A stretch of 64,000 nucleotides of DNA from a virus (IMGVR_UViG_3300021420_000019:37524-101523), one strand, 5' to 3'; counted from the first letter of the stretch, positions 11,924-50,766 are shown. Program-made: numbers and translations. Notes: generated from the sequence alone by a model not told the origin.

Positions 11924-12165
11924 CGAATTCTTGCCTTCTTGCCAACATGGCAACAAGAAGTCTGCCTCAGAGGGAGAGAGAGAGCAAGTAAACCAATATA
12001 TAAGTATAAATAACTATAAGACCCCTTGGTATTGATAATAAAAGACTTATTATAATCACGTCCGAATTTGTAAAAAGTTATATGACTATTTTAATTAAAT
12101 ATAGTGGTCTCTGTGTCTCTGAGGCGAACGACTTGTTGCCAACATGGCAAGAAGGCAACAATTCG
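11924..12165. repeat. ~58-bp imperfect inverted repeats flanking an AT-rich core (origin-like)
   Basis: cgaattcttgccttcttgccaacatggcaacaag...gcctcagag (11924-11972) versus ctctgaggc...cttgttgccaacatggcaagaaggcaacaattcg (12117-12165). Confidence 0.75.
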
Positions 12166-14017: not shown

Positions 14018-14830
14018 CACATCAGCGAGAAACAAGTTCCTGGGAAGGAACACACATTTGTAGCTGTGAATGGAAAGACCGAGACTGGGACTTTACCCGC
14101 TCTTCGTGGGCAAAGCAACTCTTTTGCGTTTTGGGTTAAAGACGAAGCTTGCATAAACGGTGGGTACTGGCGATCCCAGCTATATTTAACTCAGCGTAGA
14201 AAGGATTGGTCTACCGGAAAGAATGGCTTATTAGGGAGAATGAGGAACCTAATGAATAGCCAGAAGCAACAAGCTCAAAGAAACGGGCACAAGCCACCAC
14301 TTGTTACTGCCGAACAGATGTCATCAATGTGGGTGTCCCAGAACGGTTTATGCGCTGCTTGCGGTGGTCAGTTGAGTTTATTAGGTGCTGCTTTTGACCA
14401 CAATCATGAAACTGGCGAACCACGCGGCTTCCTTCATCAATATTGCAATATCGCTGAAGGATGTACAACGCGGATGACGGAAGAAGAATTCAGAAAATTT
14501 GTAGAGTTTATCGGGAGTATTAAGATGAAGCATGATAAAGCGTACGATCAGCCAACCAACATGGCTAACGCTGGCACGACCACACCGGCGGCTAAGGTAT
14601 CTGGCGATATCAAGAATGATGCCCTAGGCAACCCGAGCCGGTTCGCACGTAACGCGAGCACCTCGGTGACCGAAGACACTAACTCTGAGATCGATACCCT
14701 CCGCGAGCTTCAACTCGGTTCAAACGGATATCAGGCAAATGGGTACCACCCCAGGGTGGCGAACTCCCCAGTTCCTACGAGAGGTTTCGGAGAAAGTAAG
14801 GCAGATGTAGGCGGGTACCAAGGCGAGTAA
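14015..14830 (+). CDS. Endonuclease VII-family protein read in frame into a probable resident gene (internal RBS + ATG at 14525)
   Basis: QNGLCAACG...FDHNHETGEPRGFLHQYCNIAEG; gggag-N7-ATG before MKHDKAYDQP. Confidence 0.7.
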   Translation: MHISEKQVPGKEHTFVAVNGKTETGTLPALRGQSNSFAFWVKDEACINGGYWRSQLYLTQRRKDWSTGKNGLLGRMRNLMNSQKQQAQRNGHKPPLVTAEQMSSMWVSQNGLCAACGGQLSLLGAAFDHNHETGEPRGFLHQYCNIAEGCTTRMTEEEFRKFVEFIGSIKMKHDKAYDQPTNMANAGTTTPAAKVSGDIKNDALGNPSRFARNASTSVTEDTNSEIDTLRELQLGSNGYQANGYHPRVANSPVPTRGFGESKADVGGYQGE

Positions 14831-14831
14831 C

Positions 14832-15017
14832 GTGACGGTGAAAGAGTTAATCTCGGAACTCCAAAAGAGAGACCCAGAGAGTCGGGTCTTTATGGGCTAC
14901 GACGGAAACGTAGTAGTATCTGAATCAGATTCGGTTGTATCGCCTTCAGAAGAGGAGATCGAAGTCTGCTGGTGGTCTGTAAGGCCGGGCGATACAGTTA
15001 TTTTGTGTAACGAGTAA
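14832..15017 (+). CDS. Small phage protein (MTVKELI type)
   Basis: MTVKELISELQKRDPE start; tightly packed. Confidence 0.65.
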   Translation: MTVKELISELQKRDPESRVFMGYDGNVVVSESDSVVSPSEEEIEVCWWSVRPGDTVILCNE

Positions 15018-15040
15018 ATAAAGCTTGACAGGAGACTAAA

Positions 15041-15211
15041 ATGATTGTAGGATTAGCACTAATCGCAGTAGCAAGTTTCGCGTACGCGGTCTACAAGCAC
15101 ATGACCTTGTCTTCGGTCAAGGCCGCCGTTCTAGCGGAAGTTACAAAGGTCGAAGCGTCGGTTGTGCCCGAGGTTAAGGCACTCGCGGCAGCCATAAAGG
15201 CAAAACTGTAG
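15041..15211 (+). CDS. Small membrane protein (56 aa; not in the track)
   Basis: AGGAG RBS; MIVGLALIAVASFAYAVYK. Confidence 0.65.
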   Translation: MIVGLALIAVASFAYAVYKHMTLSSVKAAVLAEVTKVEASVVPEVKALAAAIKAKL

Positions 15212-15218
15212 ATTCAAT

Positions 15219-15295
15219 GGCGGACGGGGCGATACAGGTGACGCCCCAGACTGTGAATCTGGGTATAGTGGGTTCAAGGCCCATCGTCCGCCCCA
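15219..15295 (+). tRNA. tRNA-His(GUG)
   Basis: Cloverleaf; loop ctGTGaa; encoded G-1; CCA. Confidence 0.9.
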
Positions 15296-15335
15296 AAAAT
15301 TGTTACGCAGGTCCAAATCCTAGCGTGATGACCTG

Positions 15336-15389
15336 ATCGGGGAGTGCCAGTAACACTCCCTGATTTGACTCTTTACTGGAGGGTCTATG
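15336..15389 (+). promoter_or_regulatory. Kissing-loop element, copy 3
   Basis: ggggagtg[ccagtaa]cactccct gattt gactct[ttactgg]agggtc t ATG. Confidence 0.8.
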
Positions 15390-15887
15390 AGCAGTGCAAA
15401 AGATATGCGAGCGCAGTTGGGGATGTATCCTACAACCGCCAGGCATAAGTTAAATAGATTGATAATGTTTTCTTTAGTTCAGAAGTCCGGATTGGATTTG
15501 TGCTTTCGATGCGGAGAGAAGATACTGACGCCGAAAGAATTATCGGTAGACCATAAGTTGCCTTGGTTTCGTATTTCCACGGAGCTGTTTTGGGATTTAG
15601 AGAACATAGCCTTCTCACATTTCTCCTGTAACTCGGAAGAGGGCCGGTCGAGAAATCCGAGCAATACTAGGAATCCGAATTTAATAGCTCCTGACGGGAT
15701 GCTATGGTGCAGTAGATGTAAGGATTATAGACATATTGAAGATTTTAGTCCATCTAGACGAAAGTCTAATGTTGGGCACGTCTGTAGAAAATGCGTATCA
15801 GATAAAGAGAAAACACGCTATTCTAAAGCTGTAAATCGTCCGGTTAGAGGCTACCGACAAACTATGAAAGCCTCAAAAGATTTTTGA
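15387..15887 (+). CDS. HNH homing-endonuclease-like protein
   Basis: CFRCG...SVDHKLPW...NIAFSHFSCN plus C-terminal Cys cluster; paralog of the 18900 ORF. Confidence 0.85.
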   Translation: MSSAKDMRAQLGMYPTTARHKLNRLIMFSLVQKSGLDLCFRCGEKILTPKELSVDHKLPWFRISTELFWDLENIAFSHFSCNSEEGRSRNPSNTRNPNLIAPDGMLWCSRCKDYRHIEDFSPSRRKSNVGHVCRKCVSDKEKTRYSKAVNRPVRGYRQTMKASKDF

Positions 15888-15896
15888 AAATAAGTG

Positions 15897-15925
15897 TTGA
15901 CAAACAAAACGGTTTGTGAGACACT
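15897..15925 (+). promoter_or_regulatory. Probable promoter of the tRNA/ncRNA array
   Basis: TTGACA-N17-GACACT. Confidence 0.55.
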
Positions 15926-16148
15926 ATGAAAGTCGAGAACGGAGATACCCACCGACTAATGTCACGGGCTTCGCTCGACAAAGTTTGATACTGTTTCATG
16001 CCGGAGAGATGCTAAAGCCGTGCACGGCTAATCTGGTGTGATGACATCGACCGGAGTCACTCCCTTTAGGGCGTGAACTCCTTAGCCTGGTCAGCCGTTG
16101 ACGCGAAGGCATCCGGTCTAGAACGTTTTCGTCGGCGAATATTTTTAT

Positions 16149-16223
16149 CCTTGTCTGATGTTAATGGTAGCATTCCTGTTTGAAGCACAGGCTGTAACCG
16201 TTCGAGCCGGTTGGCAAGGACCA
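16149..16223 (+). tRNA. tRNA-Phe(GAA)
   Basis: cctgt ttGAAgc acagg; GTTCGA; CCA. Confidence 0.85.
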
Positions 16224-16305
16224 GTTAGAGACATGCGGAGTCCGCGACGGATAGAAACGGCGCGGAATCCTACAGCGAGACGCAAGTCACCATGTCCACG
16301 TTTAT

Positions 16306-16393
16306 GCGTCTGTGGATGGAATAGGCAGACACGTCGGTCTCAAAAACCGATGACAGAGATGGCGTGGGAGTTCGAGTCTCCCCGGACGCACCA
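16306..16393 (+). tRNA. tRNA-Leu(CAA)
   Basis: Class II cloverleaf; ctCAAaa; CCA. Confidence 0.9.
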
Positions 16394-16400
16394 ATTTTAT

Positions 16401-16490
16401 TGTGGGCAGCATTGGATGCAGCGGACACTTATAAAGTCCGAATCAGCAGATCGCTGAGCCGATAGGGTCCGATTCCCTAGTCCACAACCA
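16401..16490 (+). tRNA. tRNA with UAU anticodon (Ile) and long variable arm
   Basis: ctTATaa; V-arm tcagc-agatc-gctga; T arm taggg tccgatt cccta; CCA. Confidence 0.7.
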
Positions 16491-16495
16491 AGTTT

Positions 16496-16581
16496 GCCGT
16501 TGTGACGGAATGGTATACGAGGGAGTCTTAAAAACTCCTGTGCTCACGCACATGCTGGTTCGAGTCCAGTCAACGGCACCA
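16496..16581 (+). tRNA. tRNA-Leu(UAA)
   Basis: ggagt ctTAAaa actcc; CCA. Confidence 0.92.
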
Positions 16582-16585
16582 ATCT

Positions 16586-16653
16586 GGCGGAGACAGAGGT
16601 TCGATTCCTCTCTTAGGTCACTGACCCGAGTCGTCTAGCGGCAGGATACCGCC
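16586..16653 (+). ncRNA. Circularly permuted, anticodon-less tRNA mimic (YrlA-like topology)
   Basis: ggcgg-agac-[T arm agagg ttcgatt cctct]-[closed acceptor-like stem]-tc-[D arm gtctagcggcaggat]-a-ccgcc. Confidence 0.7.
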
Positions 16654-16908
16654 TAACAAGATCGCAAGTCCTACGGGGCGAACGATAGAACACGGCAGGG
16701 CGAACTCGGGTGGAAACACTTTAGAGCATCTGTGCTCCGTGGGCTCGGGGAACGCGACATCCCCAGAATTTGATATTCCAGAGACCTGTAAGTCCCTGAT
16801 ACGGCAAGGTCCCGGATTGCCAGGACGGTGCTACGCGCCACGATGGGGCCGCTTTGATGCTACTGGGCCAAGTTAACCAGTCAGTCCTGGCATAGGTATT
16901 CAAGTTTT

Positions 16909-16984
16909 GAATTCGTAGCTCAATTGCTAGAGCAATCGACTCTTACTCGATGGGTTGTGGGTTGGACTCCCACCGGATTCACCA
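16909..16984 (+). tRNA. tRNA-Lys(CUU)
   Basis: atcga ctCTTac tcgat; CCA. Confidence 0.9.
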
Positions 16985-17054
16985 AGTTTGACGTTCACTT
17001 AACAGTGAGATAACGACCGTAGCGGTTTCGCGTGACTCCGCCGTCAAAAGATTC

Positions 17055-17129
17055 GGATCGCTAATTCAAAGGCTAGAAGCGCTCTCTTTTAAAGAGTTAA
17101 TCTCCGTTCGAGTCGGAGGCGATCCACCA
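17055..17129 (+). tRNA. tRNA-Lys(UUU)
   Basis: gctct ctTTTaa agagt; CCA. Confidence 0.9.
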
Positions 17130-17137
17130 AGTTCTAT

Positions 17138-17225
17138 TGAGCCCATGACACAATGGTGTGTCCCTTCTCTGTAAAAGAAGCGGTCCTTGCGACCACGGTC
17201 AGTTCGATCCTGACGGGCTCAACCA
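17138..17225 (+). tRNA. tRNA-Tyr(GUA)
   Basis: cttct ctGTAaa agaag; long V-arm; CCA. Confidence 0.85.
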
Positions 17226-17226
17226 T

Positions 17227-17301
17227 AGTCGAGTAGCACAATGGCGGTGCAGACTCTTGATAGGAGTAAGGCTGTCCGTTCAAGTCGGACCTCGACTACC
17301 A
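17227..17301 (+). tRNA. tRNA-Ile(GAU)
   Basis: actc ttGATag gagt; CCA. Confidence 0.88.
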
Positions 17302-17377
17302 ATATTGATATCCGGGGGACTAACTAGGAGCCGTATAGCAGCCTAGTTCAATGCTGTACGGGAAACCTCCCCGGCGT

Positions 17378-17452
17378 GGGCGATGAGTAGGACGGGAATA
17401 TTCCTGCTTTGCAAGCAGCGAGAAATCGGTTCGACTCCGATATTGTCCACCA
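17378..17452 (+). tRNA. tRNA-Ala(UGC)
   Basis: ttTGCaa; G3:U70; CCA. Confidence 0.85.
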
Positions 17453-17459
17453 AATTTAC

Positions 17460-17532
17460 ACCCTGTTCGCCAAGCGGCTAAGGCATCTGGTTTACACCCA
17501 GACATTCGGGAGTTCAAATCTCTCACGGGGTA
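17460..17532 (+). tRNA. tRNA-Val(UAC)
   Basis: tctgg ttTACac ccaga; no encoded CCA. Confidence 0.88.
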
Positions 17533-17533
17533 C

Positions 17534-17609
17534 GGGCTGTTCGTTCACCGGAATAGGACACGACGCTACGAACGTCGAAAAAAGAGTTCGATTCTCTTAC
17601 GGCCCTCCA
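17534..17609 (+). tRNA. tRNA-Arg(ACG)
   Basis: cgacg ctACGaa cgtcg; CCA. Confidence 0.9.
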
Positions 17610-17613
17610 TCTT

Positions 17614-17689
17614 GACCCTGTAACTCAGCGCACAGAGTGTCCGCCTTCGAAGCGGTTCGCCGGGGGTTGGAATCCCTCCAGGGTCTCCA
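17614..17689 (+). tRNA. tRNA-Arg(UCG)
   Basis: ccgc ctTCGaa gcgg; CCA. Confidence 0.88.
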
Positions 17690-17798
17690 GTATGTTGTAA
17701 TACGAAGCGTAACACAACAGAAGGCGGCTACCAGTTGTGGGTAGGTCGCAAGTGAAATCCAAAGCACGTTCGGTGATAGCCCGGACAACATTTTCTGT

Positions 17799-17886
17799 TA
17801 AGGCGTAGGGGAATTGGTAGACCCGCTCGGCTGTTACCCGAGAGTCGTAAAGACACCTGTAGGTTCGAAACCTACCGCCTTAGCCA
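17799..17886 (+). tRNA. tRNA with Asn (GUU) anticodon and long variable arm
   Basis: ctcgg ctGTTac ccgag; V-arm gtc-gtaaa-gac; G73; CCA. Confidence 0.85.
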
Positions 17887-17894
17887 CTTTCAAA

Positions 17895-17969
17895 GGACGA
17901 TTAGTTTAATCGGTAGAACTGCTGTCTTGTAAACAGCGGGAAATGGTTCGAGACCATTATCGTCCTCCA
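17895..17969 (+). tRNA. tRNA-Thr(UGU)
   Basis: gctgt ctTGTaa acagc; CCA. Confidence 0.9.
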
Positions 17970-18041
17970 AGTTTTGTCTCTCGGTCATTATGGCCAAGCC
18001 GAGAAAATCTCTGTGGCGCAGAGTAAAGACAAAAAGTTTAA

Positions 18042-18116
18042 GCAGGGCTAGTATAATCGGTAGTACGCGCCCCTCGTAAGGTCGTAATGCGTGTTCGAGT
18101 CACGCGCCCTGCTCCA
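18042..18116 (+). tRNA. tRNA-Thr(CGU)
   Basis: ctCGTaa; CCA. Confidence 0.88.
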
Positions 18117-18177
18117 AGTTAAGCGGTGCCTCACTCTGATGTCCAGGTTAAATGTTCAGACAGCCGCTCTTGATTTT

Positions 18178-18251
18178 GCTGGCATAGCTCAATGGAAGAG
18201 CTTCCGCTTGGTAAGCGGAGGACTTGAGTCCGATTCTCAATGCTAGCTCCA
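18178..18251 (+). tRNA. tRNA-Thr(GGU)
   Basis: tccgc ttGGTaa gcgga; CCA. Confidence 0.9.
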
Positions 18252-18258
18252 ATTTTAC

Positions 18259-18336
18259 GGCCTGTTGGTCCAGCCTGGAGTGGACGCGTCCTTGTCACGG
18301 ACGAGATCGTGGGTCCGAATCCCACACGGGTCGCCA
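18259..18336 (+). tRNA. tRNA-Asp(GUC)
   Basis: cgtcc ttGTCac ggacg; GCCA. Confidence 0.9.
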
Positions 18337-18341
18337 TTTAC

Positions 18342-18415
18342 GGCCCTGTCGATTAGTGTCAGGTCATTCGCTTCTCAAGCGAACAGCAGCGGTTAGATTC
18401 CGCTCAGGGCCACCA
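18342..18415 (+). tRNA. tRNA-Glu(CUC)
   Basis: ttcgc ttCTCaa gcgaa; CCA. Confidence 0.88.
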
Positions 18416-18420
18416 AGTTT

Positions 18421-18497
18421 GAGGACATGGTCCAATCGGTAGCGATGCTGGCCTTTCAAGCCATGCGGTGCGGGTTCGAGTCCCGCTGTCCTTACCA
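18421..18497 (+). tRNA. tRNA-Glu(UUC)
   Basis: tggc ctTTCaa gcca; CCA. Confidence 0.88.
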
Positions 18498-18509
18498 AAT
18501 CGAGGAACT

Positions 18510-18770
18510 ATGAGCTGGGTGATGGTTAACGACTTCACCGTCGTGGAAAGAAAAGAAGACGGCACGGTAACACAGCAGGTGTTCACCTCGCACGCCCAGG
18601 CCCGTCAGTTCATGGAGAAGTACGCGGGACAAAAACCTATGAGGCCGCACAAGCCCACGATGCCTAGTCACGCTCGCGCTAGGTCCGGTAGTTCAAAGCC
18701 TATCATCCCGCAGACAGCGGAACAGATAGCGCTGAGAGAAGCGGCGCTGAAACAGTTTAACGGTTTGTAA
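18510..18770 (+). CDS. Hypothetical protein within the tRNA array
   Basis: GAGGA RBS, ATG 18510 (MSWVMVNDF...). Confidence 0.65.
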   Translation: MSWVMVNDFTVVERKEDGTVTQQVFTSHAQARQFMEKYAGQKPMRPHKPTMPSHARARSGSSKPIIPQTAEQIALREAALKQFNGL

Positions 18771-18777
18771 GTTTAAT

Positions 18778-18864
18778 CCGCTGGTGATGGAATTACCAGA
18801 CATGCGAATCTTAGAAATTCGTGCCCTATGTGGCGTGGGAGTGGAAGCCTCCCCCGGCGGACCA
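18778..18864 (+). tRNA. tRNA-Leu(UAG)
   Basis: cgaat ctTAGaa attcg; class II; CCA. Confidence 0.88.
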
Positions 18865-18899
18865 ATTTAAATCTTATCAACGACCGGGAGGTCAACGAT

Positions 18900-19337
18900 A
18901 TGAAACTGAAAGACGAATCTAAGTCAGAGCGTCGCGCTAATCAATTAGGAATGTCTTACGGTACAGCATCCGGTAGACTTCGTAAGATGATACTATTTGA
19001 TGTATTGAGAAAGCACAGCGAGAATAAATGTTTTAAGTGCGGCGAATTGATAGAGTCCGAAAAAGACTTAAGCATCGAGCATAAACAGCCCTGGGAAAAT
19101 AAAAATCCCGATCTGTTTTGGGATTTAAATAACATCGCTTTTTCTCACATGTGCTGCAACATACCGCATGTTTATAAGGGCAGCGGAGCGTCACTTAGAA
19201 AGATCGGTCCGGAAGGAACTTCGTGGTGCTGGCAGCATAAAGAATTTTTACCAATTGGAGAATTTTATACGGATTCTTCAAATTGGAACGGTCTACACAG
19301 CAGATGTAAATCTTGTCATAAGTCTAGACCTAGATAG
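18900..19337 (+). CDS. HNH homing-endonuclease-like protein
   Basis: GGAGG RBS, ATG 18900; CFKCG...SIEHKQPW...NIAFSHMCCN; paralog of the 15387 ORF. Confidence 0.85.
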   Translation: MKLKDESKSERRANQLGMSYGTASGRLRKMILFDVLRKHSENKCFKCGELIESEKDLSIEHKQPWENKNPDLFWDLNNIAFSHMCCNIPHVYKGSGASLRKIGPEGTSWCWQHKEFLPIGEFYTDSSNWNGLHSRCKSCHKSRPR

Positions 19338-19344
19338 TTTCTAC

Positions 19345-19419
19345 TGCCCGTTATAGTTCTGTTGAACTTCGAGGTCTCATAAGCCTTGCAGGTTGGTTAG
19401 ATTCCAACACGGGCTACCA
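19345..19419 (+). tRNA. tRNA(CAU), Met/fMet/Ile2 undetermined
   Basis: ctCATaa; U1-U72 mismatch; atypical D arm; CCA. Confidence 0.7.
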
Positions 19420-19425
19420 CTTTAA

Positions 19426-19499
19426 GCGTCTGTGATGTAACGGTAGCATATTTGACTGCCAGTCAAATCGTCTCGATTCGAATTCGAGTAGACGCCCCA
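19426..19499 (+). tRNA. tRNA-Gly(GCC)
   Basis: tttga ctGCCag tcaaa; CCA. Confidence 0.88.
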
Positions 19500-19596
19500 C
19501 ATTGATGTTCGCCTGTCCGTGGCGCGAGTAATTACCGCAGCCGCCCAGGCCGGAGCCCGATCCCGAGAGTGTAAAACGTCATAGTCGGAAAAATTT

Positions 19597-19713
19597 ATGA
19601 GTGAACAAAAACAGTGTTTAGAGTGCAAAGTTCCGATACACGAGGGTCCATTCGGCCCGTACATAGTGTATCTAAACGAAGACGGAACTCCACATATTTG
19701 CGATAAGAAATAG
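19597..19713 (+). CDS. Micro-protein (38 aa, MSEQKQCLEC...HIC)
   Basis: CxxC...HxC, possible Zn ligands. Confidence 0.45.
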   Translation: MSEQKQCLECKVPIHEGPFGPYIVYLNEDGTPHICDKK

Positions 19714-19717
19714 TTTT

Positions 19718-19791
19718 GCAAGCATGGTATATAGATTGTGCCCCGGCCTTCCAAGTCGGAGAATCGAGTTTGAGTCTCGATGCTTGCTCCA
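19718..19791 (+). tRNA. tRNA-Gly(UCC)
   Basis: ccggc ctTCCaa gtcgg; CCA. Confidence 0.88.
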
Positions 19792-19798
19792 AGTTTAT

Positions 19799-19873
19799 AT
19801 GAGAGTCGTCCAGCGGCCAGGACTGCGGTCTCCAAAACCGCGTACGGTGGTTCGAGTCCATCCTCTCATGCCA
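19799..19873 (+). tRNA. tRNA-Trp(CCA)
   Basis: gcggt ctCCAaa accgc; GCCA. Confidence 0.9.
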
Positions 19874-19878
19874 ATTTT

Positions 19879-19955
19879 GTCTCTATAGCTTAACGGATAA
19901 AGCGCCGAGCTTCTACCTCGGGACCACGCGGGTTCAATTCCTGCTAGAGACTCCA
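19879..19955 (+). tRNA. tRNA-Arg(UCU)
   Basis: ccgag ctTCTac ctcgg; CCA. Confidence 0.9.
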
Positions 19956-20031
19956 ATTTTCGTGGCCGCCCTAACGGGTATAAAACTATCGGGACGATAT
20001 AGACGGCGAAAATTCCCGAGCGGAAGATTAC

Positions 20032-20107
20032 GGACGCGTAGCACAGCGGACAATGCGGCTCTCCCCTAAAGAGTCAGGCCCAGGTTCAACTCCTGGCGCG
20101 TCCCCCA
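20032..20107 (+). tRNA. tRNA-Arg(CCU)
   Basis: gctct ccCCTaa agagt; CCA. Confidence 0.88.
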
Positions 20108-20351
20108 GTTCTACCGAGGTCTCATGTGGACCGCAGTCGTTGATGGCTACATCATAACACAAAGAATGTCCGATGACGACGTGTGGTTCAGATGTAACTT
20201 GTTCGGAAGGGAGCCGTTGATAGACGCACTTGAGAGGTTCCTGAAAGATACCGAAGACAATGGACACAAAGACTAAGAACGGGCTCCTGCGGCTCTCGAT
20301 ACTGTGGGGCCCGATAGCGATCTTGGTTATCTCGATTTTGACGAATTAGTT

Positions 20352-20641
20352 TGGCAGTCTAGACAATCGCGGGGAACCGAGGAAAGTCAGGACACAACTA
20401 AGTACAGTGCCGTGGGAGATGCGGGCCGGGCAACCGGACGGGTAAGCCTCCGTATCGCATTGCGAGTTAACACTCTCGTTGCGTTCATTGGAGCGGAGAC
20501 AGTCCACACTGGTGCAATCGAAAATAGGACCTGAGCGTTTACTTAGCGTGTTGAGGGTCGGGTTTCGAGCAAAGAGGAATGATTGTCGCCGCGACTTGTG
20601 TAGTATCGTTCGCGGAACAAAATCCTGCTTATTGACTGCCA
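20352..20641 (+). ncRNA. rnpB: RNase P RNA (compact, ~290 nt)
   Basis: P1 tggcagtc/gactgcca; P2 gacaatc/gattgtc; CR-I GAGGAAAGTCAGGAC; CR-V AACAAAATCCTGCTTAT with a compensatory P4 change. Confidence 0.92.
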
Positions 20642-20655
20642 CACTTTAGGATCAT

Positions 20656-20868
20656 ATGCCGCAATCAGTTGACGAAATTCTAGCAGGCGCAAAGGAAACA
20701 TTGGCGAACGCCAACAAGGCCTTCCCGAGTTCTTCTCCAGCGCCCCCGCAACCGCAGAAGCCCTCTTACACTGCGGCGCACGCAGCGAGAAAGGCCGTCC
20801 CGAGTATGGGCGATGAGCTAGCGGCTAAGGGCACGATGGTCGATAAAGCGAAACAGGCGTTGAAGTAA
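20656..20868 (+). CDS. Small hypothetical protein
   Basis: AGGA RBS; 70 aa. Confidence 0.7.
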   Translation: MPQSVDEILAGAKETLANANKAFPSSSPAPPQPQKPSYTAAHAARKAVPSMGDELAAKGTMVDKAKQALK

Positions 20869-20872
20869 TTAC

Positions 20873-20958
20873 GGAGCGGTGCCGAAACGGTAGCCGGATA
20901 TGTTTGCTAAACATACGTCCGAAAGGACGTGGGAGTTCGAGTCTCTCCCGCTCCGCCA
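20873..20958 (+). tRNA. tRNA-Ser(GCU)
   Basis: tatgt ttGCTaa acata; long V-arm; GCCA. Confidence 0.9.
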
Positions 20959-21094
20959 GATTGAATACTTGTCCGAAAGGGCATAGGGAACCTTAAACGG
21001 TAAAGACGCGAGAATATCTAAAAGCTATTCGAAGCGGACCTTGCAGTCGAAAGACGAAACTGAGAATCTTAGCAAGGGGTTCCCGAGCATTTAT

Positions 21095-21180
21095 GGAAAG
21101 CAGTCGGCAATGGTGCCTCACAGTCTTGAAAACTGTACCACCCGCAAGGGTGACGGAGTTCGATTCTCCGGCTTTCCTCC
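21095..21180 (+). tRNA. tRNA-Ser(UGA)
   Basis: acagt ctTGAaa actgt; long V-arm. Confidence 0.88.
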
Positions 21181-21254
21181 GTCCGAGTCGGCAAATGATA
21201 AGCTAGTCGTCCGCAAAACGACAATCGCTGGTTTGATTCCAGCCTCGGACTCCA
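21181..21254 (+). tRNA. tRNA-Cys(GCA)
   Basis: gtcgt ccGCAaa acgac; U73; CCA. Confidence 0.85.
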
Positions 21255-21263
21255 AATTTCTAT

Positions 21264-21337
21264 TCCCTTGTCGGCTAAAGGCAGGCCACGAGTCTTTGAA
21301 ACTCGTTACGGACGTTCGACCCGTCCCGAGGGAACCA
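21264..21337 (+). tRNA. tRNA-Gln(UUG)
   Basis: cgagt ctTTGaa actcg; CCA. Confidence 0.9.
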
Positions 21338-21344
21338 TTTCTAC

Positions 21345-21419
21345 TCCCGTGTCGGCTAACTGGAAGGCCAGCGCCCTCTGAAGGCGTTAATTTTCGTTCG
21401 AATCGAAACGTGGGAACCA
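21345..21419 (+). tRNA. tRNA-Gln(CUG)
   Basis: gcgcc ctCTGaa ggcgt; CCA. Confidence 0.88.
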
Positions 21420-21423
21420 TTTC

Positions 21424-21849
21424 ATGAAGAAACTGTTACTCGCTCTCGTGTTAATTTTGGCTCTCGCGACACCAGCGCAGCCGAGGCACCACGCGAGCCA
21501 AGGTATCATCATCGAGATTCACGCGAGCACCACGTACGAGACCGGCAGGTTGAAGCGGTTATCAGATAAGCTCAACTTCGACGGACAGCATATGGTCCCT
21601 TGGTGGAGAATCGTAGTTCTGAACAAAGCCGATTGGACAGATGCTCTCATTAAGTATAACCTCGAAGGGCAAACTGATAGCGCGTTCACCGTCCTAGGTC
21701 AGAACGTGACATTCGTGAACGAAGACTATATCGGCTTTGCCGATGACGCTAGGTTAGAACACACGCTAGCCCACGAAAGTGCTCATTTGATTTGTTCATG
21801 CACTAGTGAAGATACCGCGAATAAGATCGCGAAGATTCTAGAGAAGTAA
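21424..21849 (+). CDS. Exported zinc-metallopeptidase-like protein
   Basis: Signal peptide; HTLAHESAH. Confidence 0.65.
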   Translation: MKKLLLALVLILALATPAQPRHHASQGIIIEIHASTTYETGRLKRLSDKLNFDGQHMVPWWRIVVLNKADWTDALIKYNLEGQTDSAFTVLGQNVTFVNEDYIGFADDARLEHTLAHESAHLICSCTSEDTANKIAKILEK

Positions 21850-21926
21850 GCCGAGCAGAGGCTCCGAATTCGGAACGGTACGTTCTCGTTAGATGCTCTG
21901 TAAAGGATACGAGATCAGGTACTACA

Positions 21927-22682
21927 GTGAGAAAGTTTCTCGCATTGGCTCTATCGTTGGTCCTACTTATCTCCGGATCAGCCGTACTCATTACGGGCGC
22001 ACCAAGATCGTTTGAACCCCAGGCTCGCGCAGCCACGGGCGCTATCTTCGTTGATGCTGACCGTAGATTCGAATGTTCCGGAACTGAAATAGCTCACACG
22101 AAAGACGGTGACGGAATATTTTTGACGGCTCGTCATTGCGTTGCTTCTGTCGAAACAAACAAGATCACTCGGCGCATGCAACTGTCCTTTTCAGACAACA
22201 TGGGCGGACCTTACTACGATGCCGTACCGATTGCGATTTCAACCAGTGATGATCTAGCTCTTCTGCTTGTTAGAAATGGTGCGAGCATTCCAGAGGTGAA
22301 GATCAAGGACGAGCGTAGGCTACGCGGCGGTGATCCGATCTTTAACGTTAGCTACCCTCTCGGAGCAGGTAAGTTAATTTTTCATGGGGAATATTTAGCT
22401 CCCAGGTTCCCGATGTTTCCTGGCATACTTGCGGATTACCCCATGTGGCAGTTCGCGATGCCAGCAAATATTACGTGGGCTCACGGGTCCAGTGGTAGTG
22501 GGGTCTTCAGTAGCGGGCAGCGTGCTTTGATCGCGGTCTGTGTCGGAACGTTTTCTGAGGGCAGTTTCAACGTGGCAATCCCCGCAGATAGAGTACTTGA
22601 CTTTCTTGCGGATTTATCGGATAATACAGTTGAACGGTTTGCTTTGCAAAACCCTGAGAAGGAAGAAGTAGAAGTCTTTTAA
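21927..22682 (+). CDS. Exported trypsin-like serine protease
   Basis: Signal/TM segment; LTARHC, DDLALL, HGSSGSG catalytic motifs. Confidence 0.9.
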   Translation: MRKFLALALSLVLLISGSAVLITGAPRSFEPQARAATGAIFVDADRRFECSGTEIAHTKDGDGIFLTARHCVASVETNKITRRMQLSFSDNMGGPYYDAVPIAISTSDDLALLLVRNGASIPEVKIKDERRLRGGDPIFNVSYPLGAGKLIFHGEYLAPRFPMFPGILADYPMWQFAMPANITWAHGSSGSGVFSSGQRALIAVCVGTFSEGSFNVAIPADRVLDFLADLSDNTVERFALQNPEKEEVEVF

Positions 22683-22718
22683 TTTAATCAGATACGTTCC
22701 GCATAATTAACGGAACCA

Positions 22719-22771
22719 GGCTTGGGAGAGCCCCTACTCTCCCAGGCCGACTCTTAAGGGAGAGACAAATG
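22719..22771 (+). promoter_or_regulatory. Kissing-loop element, copy 4 (one mismatch)
   Basis: ggcttgggagag[ccccta]ctctcccaggcc ga ctct[taaggg]agag acaa ATG. Confidence 0.6.
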
Positions 22772-23419
22772 AAAGGACATCTTTACAGATATCCGCATCC
22801 GTATAGTTCAGATAAGTTTATTTACGCCGGGCAGGGCGAGAAACGCGATAATGAGCATCGCGGTGGCCGAACTAGTTTCGGTCGTAGATTCGAGAAACTA
22901 TTTCCCGGCATTGAATTGCCGAATCCGGTAAGAGAGACGATTGAAGTCCGAGATTATTTAGAGCTAAATGAACTAGAAATAATCTGGATGTTTCAATATC
23001 ATACTTGGCGTGGATATCCTGGCGGAATGAATTTAACTTTACCCGGGTCAATCGATTATAGGAGTATGGGTTTAATCGGCGGACGTGTTCAGGGCCCTAA
23101 GAACGTAGAATCGGGGGCGCTAGCAAAAATCCAAAGTGCAGGCGGGCGTGTTAGCGGTCGAATGAATTCTGAGTCCGGACGTATTCAAGAACTCGGTCAC
23201 ACGCAGGGTCGTAAGAATGTTGAAAGCGGGCAACTTGCCAGTATACAAAGTATGGCCGGTCGTGCCGGTGGGCGCATAGCTTTAGAAAGCGGACAATTTT
23301 CTGGAATCAGAAGCAGAGGTAATCATAGTCGTTGGCACATAGCCCGTGGTATTTCTAGACCGAGTGTTTGTTCGTTGTGTGCAGAAACAGAAAATTTAAC
23401 GAGAACTAGCTTAACGTAG
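22769..23419 (+). CDS. GIY-YIG-like homing endonuclease with Gly/Arg-rich repeats
   Basis: GHLYRY...FIYAGQG..R..EH, conserved E, GGMN; paralog of the 54573 ORF; 3' end overlaps tRNA-Pro. Confidence 0.7.
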   Translation: MKGHLYRYPHPYSSDKFIYAGQGEKRDNEHRGGRTSFGRRFEKLFPGIELPNPVRETIEVRDYLELNELEIIWMFQYHTWRGYPGGMNLTLPGSIDYRSMGLIGGRVQGPKNVESGALAKIQSAGGRVSGRMNSESGRIQELGHTQGRKNVESGQLASIQSMAGRAGGRIALESGQFSGIRSRGNHSRWHIARGISRPSVCSLCAETENLTRTSLT

Positions 23420-23473
23420 AGCACGTGCTTTGGAAGCACGGGGGTGAAGTTTCGAGCACTTCGTTCTCGACCA
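23400..23473 (+). tRNA. tRNA-Pro(UGG)
   Basis: cgtgc ttTGGaa gcacg; ACCA. Confidence 0.85.
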
Positions 23474-23481
23474 GTTTAAAA

Positions 23482-23555
23482 CGGAAATTCTGATAATGGT
23501 AGTCTCTACGTTTCGGATACGTAGGGCGGACGTTCGATTCGTCCATTTCCGACCA
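23482..23555 (+). tRNA. tRNA-Pro(CGG)
   Basis: tacgt ttCGGat acgta; ACCA. Confidence 0.85.
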
Positions 23556-23564
23556 CATTAAAGT

Positions 23565-23595
23565 GAGCTTCCAGAAATGGGGGCTCTTGTATTTC
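23565..23595 (+). terminator. Probable intrinsic terminator ending the tRNA region
   Basis: gagcttcca gaaa tgggggctc followed by ttgtattt. Confidence 0.5.
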
Positions 23596-23605
23596 TAGGA
23601 GTGTC

Positions 23606-25138
23606 ATGGCTACAGTAACTCAGCAGTTAGGCAGAGCAGCGGCGTATGATCTATTGGCGGCAGCGGGCATTACGAACACAGGTTCAAGTATTATTGCCGG
23701 GGGAAACGTAGGAAGCTTTCCCACAGCAACCTACACTCTTGATGGAATGATCTTTATTCCTCCCGCAGCATTAGATTCAGCAGACGCTCAGAACGCCCAG
23801 ATCGACAACAATGCCGCCTTCCTCTTCTTCCAAGCTCTGCCTCAGACAATGGCCCTCTCAACAGCCGACATCGGCGCGACCGGCATTCAACACAGCCCCG
23901 GTGCCCCCAATGGCACCTACTATCCTGGCGTATATGTTTCCCCAAGTTCAATTGCAATTTCTACTCCAGTCACTCTAGATGCGCAGGGCAATCCTAACGC
24001 GGTGTTCGTATTTTATTCTACGGGTTCAACTATCACTCAGGCTATAGCTGGCACAATTAACTTGGTCAACGGAGCAAAGGCCGCTAACGTAGTGTGGCTC
24101 GTGGGTAGCTCTTGGACTAGTATCGGCCCCGGCGCTTTGACACAGGGCAACATTATTGCGGCCACCTCTATCACTTTAGGTGGGGGAGTACTCAATGGTA
24201 GGGCACTCGCGGGAGCGGTAAACTCCAGCGGAGCGATCACGATAGCTGCGGCAGAAAGTATCACTGCTCCGGCCAGCGTCGGTACTCCAACTACAGCGGG
24301 CGGTCAAGCTCAAGCTTTGATCGCTACACAACCTGGGGTTTCGGTTCCCACGGCTTATCCTCAAGTTACAGGCCAAGGAATTATTCCTCCTCAAGATTTG
24401 GATATGCTTCAGATCATCGGAGAGGGCGGAGATATTTTAGTATCTGTAGATTATCTTGGAACAGTTCATAACGTTACAACTAGCCAGTCATCTACGTCTC
24501 CATTGACCTCAGTTGCGATCTCTTCGTTCCCAATTACCTCTGTCACATCAGCGGGAGTATACACCGGAACATTTCCTGCGGGCACGAATACAGTAGCCGG
24601 TCAGACTGCGGTCATCTCTGGCTTCACGAACGGCGGCAATAATGGAACGTTCACGATCACCGCATCTACAGCGACAACTATCACCGTGACCCCGAACACG
24701 CAAGTTAACGAGAGCGCTTCGGCTCAAGCGTTAATTACGGGCTTTAGTCAAAGTACCTATAACGGAACTATCACAAACGGCGCGGCCAGCGGGCTCGCCG
24801 GACGCTTTGTTTCGGTCACTGGCTTCACGAACTCGGGTAACAACATCTCTAACACCTTGGTTATCTCAAGCACCGCGACAACTATCGTGACATCTTACAC
24901 CGCGCAGGTCGCTGAGACACACGCGGCTACCGCCACTGTGTCTGCGTCGTTCACGCCGTCTAACGGCTGCCGATTGGGCCAGTATTTCACGAGGCTCCTA
25001 CCCGGTGCAACTATCGCTCAGTTATTTACCGACGCTTTTGCTAACCCCAGTCTCTTGGACATCGTCCATGTGTATGTACCGAATAGTGGGGCCATCGTCT
25101 ACATTTTGGATCACAACGGCGTGGCTAGTGGCAGCTAA
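23606..25138 (+). CDS. Putative virion protein with DUF3494 ice-binding-like domain
   Basis: LLAAAGITNTG...PGVY...VTLDAQGNPNAVFVF...LVNGAKAANVVWLVGSS...GNIIA...LNGRALA. Confidence 0.85.
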   Translation: MATVTQQLGRAAAYDLLAAAGITNTGSSIIAGGNVGSFPTATYTLDGMIFIPPAALDSADAQNAQIDNNAAFLFFQALPQTMALSTADIGATGIQHSPGAPNGTYYPGVYVSPSSIAISTPVTLDAQGNPNAVFVFYSTGSTITQAIAGTINLVNGAKAANVVWLVGSSWTSIGPGALTQGNIIAATSITLGGGVLNGRALAGAVNSSGAITIAAAESITAPASVGTPTTAGGQAQALIATQPGVSVPTAYPQVTGQGIIPPQDLDMLQIIGEGGDILVSVDYLGTVHNVTTSQSSTSPLTSVAISSFPITSVTSAGVYTGTFPAGTNTVAGQTAVISGFTNGGNNGTFTITASTATTITVTPNTQVNESASAQALITGFSQSTYNGTITNGAASGLAGRFVSVTGFTNSGNNISNTLVISSTATTIVTSYTAQVAETHAATATVSASFTPSNGCRLGQYFTRLLPGATIAQLFTDAFANPSLLDIVHVYVPNSGAIVYILDHNGVASGS

Positions 25139-47991: not shown

Positions 47992-50766
47992 ATGCCAAAT
48001 TCTTTGCAAGATACAAAAAACTACATCGAGCCGTTCTGCCGATATATGCCTTCGAACGTGGGCACGAGCAATATGCCCCTCATCGGACTCGCGAATATCG
48101 TCAGAAACATAATTTTGGCTGCGCCCTTCACTTGGGCCTTTAACCGCAACAACGATGATAGCATCACTACGGTTCAAGGTACTCAGGACTACGCGACAAG
48201 TATCACGGACTTTGGTTTTCTAGAGAAGACCACGGTCAAGGACACCGACGGTAAGCTTTGGGAGCTAGAAGACGTTCTGAACAATATATCCCTAGGGAAG
48301 TCCACCACTCAGGCCCGTCCGGAGGCAATTGCGGTTGAGGGCTTCGGTGCTACCCCGACAATGCCGACAATGCTGAACACTATTAAAACTAGTTTCAGTA
48401 CGCCGGTTTTTATGAATCAGCCCTCGATTAGTTTCACCGTGCCGCAGACAGTTATTGCTGGCGACACCCTAGCATTTGCGGTAGAGTTGAGTAACGGTGT
48501 CGGTGCTCCCGCTAGCGTTACGGATAGTTTGGGAAATATAATTACTTTAATCTCGTCACAGAGCGCCACCGCCCCCGGAACAGATTCAGTTGCAACAGAA
48601 CTAGGCGTGGCATCAGCGTACGCTATCCTCGCGGCTGCGGGCATATCAAACACGGGCTCTACCCTAATCGCAGGCGGCAACATCGGGTCCTTCCCGACCG
48701 CGACTGAGACCGGGTTTACCTCCGCCAACTTCATCCCTCCAGCGGCAATCGACAACACTGACGCTTCGGCAGCGCTGTCAGCCGCGCTTACCGCGTATAA
48801 CTTTTACAGTGCCCTTAGCTTCACATCGTTGAGCGGCTCTTCTGCAAATTTGAGTGTCTTAGGTAACGGCGCGACCGCCAGCACTTATATCCCGGGTAAC
48901 TACTCTGCGGGCTCTAGTATGGATATCCCGACGAGTATCACCTTAGATGCCCAGGGCAACTCGAACGCTTTATTCGTCTTCAAGGCGGGGAGCACGTTGA
49001 CACTCGAAAGCGGGGCGTCTATCCTCTTGGCTAACGGCGCTAAGGCCGCGAACGTAGTTTGGGTCGTAGGCAGCTCTGCTACCACTGTTGGAACTACCGG
49101 AGTATTTAATGGCAACATTCTAGCCAACACAAGCATTACGATTGGGGGCGGGACGTTTAACGGTCGCGCCCTAGCGGGAATCGTAACCAGCTCTGGGGCG
49201 GTCGTTATATCAACCGCTGTGGCTATGGCGGTTGCTACAGTTCCTTCAGCAGTTGATAACCATCAATTTCTCGTATACAACATGCCGGTTACGGTGTCCG
49301 GAATCAGCACTATTACCATTACCGCGCCAGCATCAAGCGGAGCATCTCTACCACTGACTCAGGTATCGGTCTCCGGAACTACGGTCGCGTACACAGGAAC
49401 AATCACCGGAGGGGCTTCGAATGCTTTTGTAGGTCAGACATTTACAATGTCCGGCTTTACGAATCCCGGAAATAATGTCTCAATGATTATTACCGGATCG
49501 ACCGCGACAACCCTGGTCGGTACAACTACGACTCAGGTTAACGAACTGCACTCTGAGATCGCAGCATTTTCTTTGACGTTAACACAGGTCGCGGTTGCCG
49601 GACCAACAGTTACATATACCGGAACGATAAATGGCGGAGCCTCAAACGGTTTCGTAGGACAGACGTTCGCTATCTTTGGCTTTACTAACTCAGGTAATAA
49701 CGTTTCGCTCTTGGTCACATCTTCAACTTCAACTACACTCGTCGGCACAACAACGACCCAGATCAACGAGGTACACTCCGCGCTCGCTCAGATCACACCA
49801 GCGCTATCGCTATCCCAGGTATCTGTATCTGGAACAACGACCACATACACAGGAAATATAACCGGGGGAGCGTCAAATAGTTTCGCTGGCCAGGTGTTTA
49901 CAATCTCTGGTTTTACAAATCCAGGAAACAACCTCGTGCTTACGGCCACCGGATCGACCGCGACAACCCTGACGGCTACGACTACAACCCAGGTTAACGA
50001 GTCACACGTTCAGACAGCATCGTCACCTTTAAACGCTAGAAACTTTCTTGTTGAGGGAGTTTTACTGACCGGAGTCGGGCCTATTCAACTTACATCTTAC
50101 TTCTTTTCGAACCCGGTAAATAACCAGGGCGTTTCGCAAACGTGGACATCGGAGCCTCTGACAACTATACAACCGAACGAGCTGCTGTTAGCGTTCACAA
50201 CAGCGTACGCTCCGCCATCTTCGGTTACCGACACGTTCAGCGTTCTACAGTCTGGCATTATAACAGATTCGACTTCGGCCAACGTTCAATTGAGCACGGC
50301 GGCCTTCATGGCTCCTACGGTCGGGGTGTATAACTCTCACTGGACTCAGGCGTCGTCAGCGCCGTGGCAGGCGGTGTTAGTGGGATACCCAGGTCTCCCA
50401 GGTCTCGGTAACTTATCTCCTGTATTCAGGTTCTCAGCCGTTCCTAATAAGGCGTACCCGGTGGATTTGATCTACCAGAAGAAGCCTCTCCAATTTGTGG
50501 TATTGACGGACCCGTGGGCCCCGATCCCAGATTCGTTCTCAGATGTGTATAACAATCTGTGCCTTGGGTACTATATGGAATCGTGTCAAGACCCTCGGGC
50601 ACCTCAGTATATAGCTCGCGGAATAGCAGGATTGCTGTCTCGTTCACAAGGCTTGACCCAGATGGATAAAGCATTATTTGCTGCGAGCTACTTGAACTTC
50701 AGCGCTCAACAGATGCTAGAGATGATGAAGCCACAGCAGTCGATCCAAGCTCAGGCGTCAAGATAA
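47992..50766 (+). CDS. Adaptor/tail-tube-like protein with inserted DUF3494 ice-binding-like domain and three ~75-aa repeats
   Basis: N- and C-termini resemble the 46890 ORF (FTWAFN..GTQDY; FRFSAVP..PIPD); internal AILAAAGISNTG...TLDAQGN...NGRALA. Confidence 0.75.
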   Translation: MPNSLQDTKNYIEPFCRYMPSNVGTSNMPLIGLANIVRNIILAAPFTWAFNRNNDDSITTVQGTQDYATSITDFGFLEKTTVKDTDGKLWELEDVLNNISLGKSTTQARPEAIAVEGFGATPTMPTMLNTIKTSFSTPVFMNQPSISFTVPQTVIAGDTLAFAVELSNGVGAPASVTDSLGNIITLISSQSATAPGTDSVATELGVASAYAILAAAGISNTGSTLIAGGNIGSFPTATETGFTSANFIPPAAIDNTDASAALSAALTAYNFYSALSFTSLSGSSANLSVLGNGATASTYIPGNYSAGSSMDIPTSITLDAQGNSNALFVFKAGSTLTLESGASILLANGAKAANVVWVVGSSATTVGTTGVFNGNILANTSITIGGGTFNGRALAGIVTSSGAVVISTAVAMAVATVPSAVDNHQFLVYNMPVTVSGISTITITAPASSGASLPLTQVSVSGTTVAYTGTITGGASNAFVGQTFTMSGFTNPGNNVSMIITGSTATTLVGTTTTQVNELHSEIAAFSLTLTQVAVAGPTVTYTGTINGGASNGFVGQTFAIFGFTNSGNNVSLLVTSSTSTTLVGTTTTQINEVHSALAQITPALSLSQVSVSGTTTTYTGNITGGASNSFAGQVFTISGFTNPGNNLVLTATGSTATTLTATTTTQVNESHVQTASSPLNARNFLVEGVLLTGVGPIQLTSYFFSNPVNNQGVSQTWTSEPLTTIQPNELLLAFTTAYAPPSSVTDTFSVLQSGIITDSTSANVQLSTAAFMAPTVGVYNSHWTQASSAPWQAVLVGYPGLPGLGNLSPVFRFSAVPNKAYPVDLIYQKKPLQFVVLTDPWAPIPDSFSDVYNNLCLGYYMESCQDPRAPQYIARGIAGLLSRSQGLTQMDKALFAASYLNFSAQQMLEMMKPQQSIQAQASR

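Follow-up and report, generated by a model that had tools for sequence, protein, structure and literature searches.

The window analysed here, a stretch of 64,000 nucleotides, corresponds to bases 37524-101523 of a 101,523-bp IMG/VR virus record (IMGVR_UViG_3300021420_000019) that originated from a soil metagenome and is rated 95% complete. The record represents an uncultured phage of about 100 kb and carries phage genes for a terminase, an SU10-type portal, a primase-polymerase, endonuclease VII and an HNH endonuclease. Between positions 15220 and 23555 of the window, 31 tRNA genes were predicted by ARAGORN on the + strand, and the addition of three odd tRNAs brought the array to a total of 34 tRNAs. 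Interleaved with these genes are 13 intervals which an initial annotation of the sequence had described as about a dozen helix-closed small RNAs released by tRNA processing, and the identity and origin of these 13 units are the subject of this study.

The tRNA operon and its 13 non-tRNA units

All 13 intervals exist as described, located either between tRNA genes or between a promoter or open reading frame (ORF) and a tRNA, and the closing helices quoted for them pair as claimed. All array tRNAs and all 13 units are on one strand. The AAGTTT/AATTT linkers that had been taken for a feature of the units turned out to be the encoded CCA of the upstream tRNA together with the T-rich leader of the next one, and an encoded CCA and a T-rich 5' leader are present in every tRNA of the array. 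Three of the intervals had to be redefined: 16691-16741 and 16818-16892 are not separate units since both are parts of one 327-nt insert, and 19507-19606 is not free-standing since it consists of the 5' untranslated region (UTR) and the start of a 38-codon ORF. In the list below, "orphan" denotes a unit without a homologue in related arrays, and folding z-scores are given for the ends chosen in the initial annotation, which had been selected for pairing (z-ends), and for the whole gap (z-gap, with two values where two runs were made).

15932-15979, + strand: unit 1, hairpin (z-ends -2.97)
16001-16116, + strand: unit 2, conserved multi-helix RNA with 11 distinct homologues and covariation
16230-16298, + strand: unit 3, orphan between tRNA-Phe and tRNA-Leu(CAA) (z-ends -3.72; z-gap -2.56, -1.63)
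16582-16908, + strand: lineage-specific insert of 327 nt that contains the module at 16586-16653 and the units 16691-16741 and 16818-16892
16586-16653, + strand: circularly permuted tRNA-Glu-like module, the canonical T arm of which (16595-16611) matches the tRNA model in part (E 2.3)
16987-17048, + strand: unit 6, orphan between two tRNA-Lys genes (z-ends -1.14; z-gap about -1.0)
17312-17374, + strand: unit 7, strongly folded orphan between tRNA-Ile and tRNA-Ala (z-ends -3.15; z-gap -2.31, -1.64)
17692-17791, + strand: unit 8, partly conserved element, 85% identical to a copy that occupies the corresponding slot in L194
17972-18034, + strand: unit 9, orphan between two tRNA-Thr genes (z-ends -2.71; z-gap -2.09, -3.17)
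18122-18168, + strand: unit 10, chance-like orphan (z-ends -0.20; z-gap -0.12, 0.03)
19507-19606, + strand: unit 11, 5' UTR and start of the ORF at 19597-19713 (z-gap -2.41)
19965-20023, + strand: unit 12, chance-like orphan (z-ends +0.36; z-gap +0.64, +0.85)
20971-21084, + strand: unit 13 (20986-21084) with an upstream GAAA-capped hairpin (20971-20982), conserved structure

The non-tRNA nature of the units was confirmed, as they gave no ARAGORN call at default or 85% thresholds and no match to RF00005 at E<=5. The initial annotation had recognised no riboswitch or ribozyme among them, and a search of Rfam 15 across 14800-24000 indeed returned no match for any unit at E<=5, nor was there one at gathering thresholds. 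When the threshold was relaxed to E<=10, no credible match was obtained for unit 2 (15890-16150), for the units in 16575-16910 or for unit 13 (20955-21098), the permissive leftovers being a truncated tRNA match (E 2.3) at a T arm outside the units and two chance-level matches (E 5.8-8.6) near unit 13. A T arm (5-bp stem, TTCRANY loop) or a 3' CCA after the closing helix was found in 0/13 units, which argues against the idea that the units are themselves tRNA-like substrates of RNase P. No two units of the window resemble each other and no direct-repeat family links them.

The proposal of a one-strand polycistronic cassette was supported by a promoter that is conserved in relatives, a terminator-like hairpin at the end of the array and an RNase P RNA of its own:

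15897-15925, + strand: predicted promoter (TTGACA, a 17-nt spacer with TG extension, GACACT)
20351-20646, + strand: reduced bacterial type-A RNase P RNA (RF00010, 86.1 bits, E 1.7e-25, under the 100-bit cut-off)
23565-23586, + strand: terminator-like hairpin and T run directly after the last tRNA, Pro-CGG (from a consensus scan only)

The promoter-like block contains an inverted repeat inside the spacer between TTGACA and GACACT, and copies that are about 91% identical were found twice in the first relative, G005 (L022 13833-13886 and near 12150), and once in L194. It was not picked up by a simple consensus scan. From its sequence we infer that 15897-15925 acts as a promoter, with a transcript start predicted at about 15931-15933.

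The match of the RNase P RNA is full-length, with model positions 1-367 aligned, and includes both P4 strands and the GGGU of L15. It has no P18, and both P3 and the specificity domain are reduced in length. An RNase P RNA was present in 14/19 long related phage records, no RnpA gene was found in the phage, and no report of a phage-encoded RNase P RNA was found in the literature searched. The unusual P4 strand GAGGAAAGTCAGGACAC also occurs in 12 viral IMG/VR contigs (L010-L021), where verification as an RNase P RNA covers just the copy in G005; tRNA genes were present in the fetched stretch of 11 of these contigs, a permuted tmRNA in three and a GOLLD RNA in one.

Conserved structured RNAs

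No match to the array was found by megablast among 50,697 GenBank phage records, and the 216-aa and 251-aa array-side proteins retrieved as relatives only phages that were too distant and without arrays. With the portal protein as query 72 related IMG/VR loci were obtained, with 19 long records, and a comparison set of about 20 related arrays was assembled from the portal-found array regions, the first relative G005 and six further metagenome contigs. The tRNA order of the window is kept in nine arrays, and a junction between two tRNAs either measures 1-9 nt or is filled by a genome-specific insert with a median length of about 96 nt. Most proteins of the window phage are 30-67% identical to those of G005, and spacer sequence without constraint should therefore be unrecognisable between these phages. 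The initial annotation had called for homologues of each unit; using BLAST and iterated nhmmer against all related arrays, these were found for just 4/13 units (16001-16116, 20986-21084, 17692-17791 and 15932-15979), and the other 9/13 had none.

The best supported of the four is unit 2, which is located at the head of the transcript, closely 3' of the promoter. A helix of 6+4 bp that bears a GAGA bulge closes its fold. The other elements are a 5-bp hairpin with covarying pairs, a central arm that varies, and a 2-bp stem, with a G-C/C-G swap, that carries the 7-nt loop CUGRYCA. In this fold 98.9% of the alignment cells are paired, compared to just 23-48% in slid registers. Changes on both sides affect six pairs, of which four belong to the 5-bp hairpin, 16 cells are compensatory, and the covariation score was reached by 0/500 shuffles. 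Nucleotide identity in unit 2 is about 65-75% between phages whose proteins are mostly 30-67% identical. Judged from this sequence comparison, unit 2 is a conserved structured RNA of a new family. No full-length copy was present in 185,579 prokaryote genomes (60 seed hits), and of 97 hits to a loose two-block pattern in IMG/VR just one was real, which was the known relative. A GCUAA/UUAGC pseudoknot considered for unit 2 was rejected, as it clashes with the covarying hairpin that needs the same GCU.

Homologues of unit 13 were found in L206, where it occupies the same slot, and in L193, where it occupies a different tRNA slot, giving three sequences in all. The fold is closed by a helix of 7 bp and contains a CGC/GCG hairpin as well as a 6-bp helix that carries a GAAA-capped hairpin; seven pairs change on both sides, four of these in the closing helix, and 0/500 shuffles matched this. 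A scan of IMG/VR with the core of the unit returned nothing beyond the two known copies. The alignment thus identifies unit 13 as a conserved structured RNA of a new family.

Only parts of the two other conserved units are retained. In unit 8 the 3' hairpin (17768-17786), with the loop UGAUAGC followed by a T run, was flagged as terminator-like in the consensus scan; both strands of its stem differ between the window and L194 while the loop is kept, and the hairpin recurs in L201, again with this loop. The whole-gap z of unit 8 is just -0.5. In unit 1 the GTCGAG/CTCGAC stem is kept in G005, its sole homologue among the related arrays, and the interior differs; given its position at the predicted start, unit 1 is probably the 5'-terminal hairpin of the primary transcript. 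Of the four conserved units, three show compensatory changes: units 2 and 13, and unit 8 within its 3' hairpin. The claim of structured small RNAs could be sustained for 16001-16116 and 20986-21084, where the compensatory changes include the closing helices, and did not extend to a panel of a dozen.

A conserved array RNA was also observed in two distantly related phages outside the window, from which it is missing. This 154-nt spacer element, with 43 predicted pairs, is 92% identical between G005 (L022 4408-4560) and G008 (L193 2017-2170).

Lineage-specific inserts and self-closure of the spacers

The units without a homologue in the approximately 20 related arrays are unit 11 and eight orphans (16230-16298, 16691-16741, 16818-16892, 16987-17048, 17312-17374, 17972-18034, 18122-18168 and 19965-20023), and three of the nine fold like shuffles, which does not agree with the proposal of about a dozen small RNAs. 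The junctions that hold the eight orphan inserts are just 1-9 nt long in relatives; for unit 3 the junction measures 1-6 nt in L193 and L204. The closing helix of unit 6 borrows TTT from the linker. Unit 9 was covered by a contig of at least 88% similarity in a second soil run (X3) and by none in the assembled relatives; X2 and X3 contain only small parts of the array, and a lack of cover in these runs has no evidential weight.

The 327-nt insert has a whole-gap z of -0.61 and no homologue in relatives. Its permuted module, which adjoins tRNA-Leu across a 4-nt linker, is arranged in the order T arm, acceptor-like stem closed by a short loop and D arm, with its ends in the anticodon stem. A second permuted module was found in L206 in the gap Ile(UAU)>Leu(UAA), so that such modules occur in two related phages in neighbouring slots. 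The ORF behind unit 11 (19597-19713), located between two tRNA-Gly genes and kept in L193, encodes 38 Cys-rich codons with two CxxC-like pairs and is zinc-ribbon-like.

The Arg(TCG)>Asn(GTT) junction is filled in all 8 syntenic arrays (102-691 nt), mostly by unrelated sequences, and 4/5 of the short inserts at this junction are closed by their own helix.

Folding was compared with shuffled controls, as the initial annotation had suggested. With the ends chosen there, z was <= -2.3 in 7/13 units and between -1.8 and +0.4 in 6/13 (overall range -3.7 to +0.4). For whole gaps, z was <= -2 in 5/11 window gaps compared to 11% of coding controls. The best terminal perfect helix in whole spacers with unselected ends was 5-8 bp, and the dinucleotide shuffles had means of 5.1-6.1 bp (p = 0.06-0.71). 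Better folding than in shuffled controls was therefore confirmed for about half of the units and for the class as a whole, and not for the rest.

For the test of the class, 13 related arrays contributed 103 non-tRNA spacers with lengths of 45-170 nt, and shuffles and flanking coding DNA served as controls. The mean folding z was -1.56 in the spacers and -0.37 in flanking coding DNA (p = 3e-9). A helix of at least 5 bp that closed at least 80% of the spacer in the minimum-energy fold was found in 45% of the spacers, 21% of the shuffles and 15% of the coding controls (p = 3e-6), and this self-closure was as strong in orphans (48% vs 20%) as in conserved spacers (39% vs 22%). The description of the units as helix-closed is thus correct for the class (45% vs 15-21%) and fails when they are taken one by one, as individual helices are at shuffle level and approximately half of the units fold better than controls.

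Other features were observed in or beside the array. The three tRNAs added to the ARAGORN predictions are the following:

16398-16492, + strand: long-variable-arm tRNA with anticodon UAU, missed by ARAGORN in the window
18775-18870, + strand: tRNA-Leu(UAG) with the aberrant T loop GTGGAAG, missed by ARAGORN in the window
21181-21251, + strand: tRNA-Cys(GCA), found by Rfam only and missed by ARAGORN

In most relatives ARAGORN names the UAU tRNA as tRNA-Ile(tat), which always adjoins tRNA-Leu genes, and tRNA-Leu(UAG) is an outright ARAGORN call in relatives. Two paralogous free-standing endonuclease genes are situated inside the array at 15387-15887, which has a Pfam HNH match, and at 18901-19337, which has no Pfam match; they have in common a 51-nt block that is 76% identical. 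Junction sequences of 25-32 nt are repeated in the array and could support recombination. Two large proteins with ice-binding-like (DUF3494) domains are encoded at 23606-25138, directly 3' of the array, and at 47992-50766.

Origin of the units and comparison with known systems

We consider it fairly probable that the 13 units are a mixed set of co-transcribed spacers which tRNA maturation cuts out of the transcript, a few of them being genuine new small RNAs. A first group would be formed by new phage-restricted structured RNAs (16001-16116, 20986-21084, the 3' hairpin of unit 8 and 15932-15979), a second by one mRNA leader (19507-19606) and a third by the eight lineage-specific inserts, most of which fold back on themselves and none of which is conserved. 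In E. coli, polycistronic tRNA precursors are processed by RNase P and RNase E (PMC2190699), and the tRNA region of phage T4 yields two stable RNAs of unknown role, RNAC and RNAD (species 1 and 2; PMC3014915). By extension from these two precedents, the array would be transcribed as one or few long precursors, and RNase P (that of the host, that with the phage's own RNA, or both) would cut at each tRNA 5' end and leave the upstream spacer with a 3' end carrying a short U-rich tail. The 5' end of the spacer may be freed by an endonuclease cut in the A/U-rich linker just past the encoded CCA. Spacers with paired ends would withstand exonucleases and could not mispair with neighbouring tRNAs, and self-closing inserts would therefore be those that are tolerated, with two or three spacers retained by selection as small RNAs.

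Two contigs of a soil metatranscriptome (X4) are identical to the array. One (20365-20636, 272 nt) covers almost exactly the RNase P RNA, and the other (16522-16839) begins inside tRNA-Leu and reaches into the 327-nt insert; no X4 contig was found on the array ORFs. These contigs hint at accumulation of the RNAs and do not point to processing.

Several observations weigh against the mixed-spacer explanation. The closing helices of the individual orphan units are no better than expected by chance, and the difference in folding between the + and - strands is no greater than in coding flanks (p = 0.22); without a strand preference beyond controls, an inverted repeat at the DNA level and an RNA helix are indistinguishable in the orphans. 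No RNA ends were observed, the contig 16522-16839 starts within tRNA-Leu, which indicates no excision at that position, and DNA carry-over is possible in the X4 library; on these three counts processing is not demonstrated. In addition, the support for unit 13 comes from three sequences only.

The initial annotation had gone further and proposed that tRNA processing releases most of the dozen units as small RNAs with a function, be it as decoys, antitoxin mimics or anti-defence RNAs. Such a role would fit the excess of closed structure across the class, orphans included, the patchy slot-hopping seen for unit 13, which resembles that of accessory cargo, and the Arg(TCG)>Asn slot that is always filled by unrelated closed inserts. 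With nine units lacking a homologue, three folding like shuffles, no target, partner protein or tRNA-like feature and no Ro/Rsr gene in the phage, we regard a role for most of the units as unlikely, and a decoy, antitoxin-mimic or anti-defence panel of a dozen is not supported.

Conversely, all units, the conserved ones included, could be functionless filler, with self-folding acting as a mere filter on tolerated insertions. The equal helix closure of orphans and conserved spacers and the freely variable junction occupancy are what would be expected in that case. This is hard to reconcile with the 65-75% identity and 16 compensatory cells of unit 2 in phages with such divergent proteins, with the seven compensatory pairs in the helices of unit 13 and with the 92% identity of the 154-nt spacer in G005 and G008, and we consider pure filler quite improbable.

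A similarly low probability is given to small mobile or recombination elements acting at the DNA level, whose terminal inverted repeats, placed at the T-arm/CCA/linker junctions, would be the closing helices. Compatible with such elements are the variable filling of junctions that are otherwise tight, the occurrence of one element in different slots, the repeated 25-32-nt junction sequences, the homing-endonuclease genes inside the array and the lack of a folding strand preference beyond controls. Against them, no two window units are alike, no common terminal sequence exists and no target duplication was seen beyond the generic leader; moreover, paired positions covary in units 2 and 13, and arms recognised by a protein would keep their sequence.

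That the units are decayed tRNA genes with acceptor stems surviving as closing helices is very improbable, since canonical T arms in 3/141 non-tRNA spacers (0.24 expected), among them 16595-16611, and the three real, odd tRNAs missed by ARAGORN in the window are outweighed by 0/13 units with a T arm, CCA end or relaxed ARAGORN call, by the lack of similarity to any family tRNA at E<=0.05 and by the fact that neutral decay would not spare the acceptor stem. Two further candidates were rejected: miniature inverted-repeat elements, as the units have neither mutual likeness nor common terminal inverted repeats, and decayed ORF remnants, as no similarity at the protein level was found between the window's short spacers and ORFs that relatives carry in their long spacers. 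Together with decayed tRNAs, these two candidates could account for a minority of the units at most.

Non-tRNA RNAs within phage tRNA clusters are not new as such, given T4 RNAC/RNAD and GOLLD beside tRNAs. New are two covarying RNA families that have no counterpart in Rfam or the literature and are so far confined to one phage clade, the measurement of spacer self-closure across that clade at about twice the chance level, and the co-residence of structured spacers with a phage RNase P RNA. The self-closure rule may stem either from limits set by the folding of the precursor or from hidden RNA genes. Current studies view phage tRNA arrays as counters to tRNA-cutting host defences, and the inter-tRNA sequence is usually ignored; with the RNase P RNA in the same operon, processing is directly testable in vitro. 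As a speculation that we hold to be unlikely, the self-sufficient tRNA operon of this clade with its RNase P RNA could serve as an expression and processing platform for structured small RNAs with a fast turnover. The targets of at least the conserved ones (16001-16116, 20986-21084 and the permuted tRNA-Glu-like module) would then be defence proteins of the host that bind RNA or attack tRNA.

Four known systems can be compared with the array. YrlA-type Y RNAs resemble the module at 16586-16653 in the order of T arm, closed acceptor-like stem, D arm and open anticodon-stem ends (PMC4201824). Unlike YrlA, the module lacks the long Ro-binding stem and has no Rfam match, and it is not among the 13 units; no match to a TROVE/Rsr (Ro60) gene was found in the 101-kb phage record. 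GOLLD and ROOL are likewise structured non-coding RNAs in phage tRNA clusters, and an unrelated contig (L016) has GOLLD in its array, but they are 400-600 nt long and have Rfam models, whereas the window units are 50-120 nt and match none. The E. coli 3'ETS-leuZ, a persisting by-product of a tRNA precursor that serves as a small-RNA sponge (cited in bioRxiv 10.1101/2021.04.25.441314; for processing, PMC2190699), has a stem and a U-rich tail, as would be expected here after an RNase P cut at the next tRNA; sponging requires complementarity to a host small RNA and Hfq. T4 RNAC and RNAD are small non-tRNA RNAs among phage tRNA genes and co-transcribed with them (PMC3014915), and the units similarly lie on the same strand within a tRNA transcription unit whose promoter and terminator are predicted. 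No sequence or Rfam relation between the two was found, and stable accumulation is known for T4 whereas here only assembled contigs are available; in place of the two T4 species, the array holds many, mostly unconserved spacers together with its own RNase P RNA.

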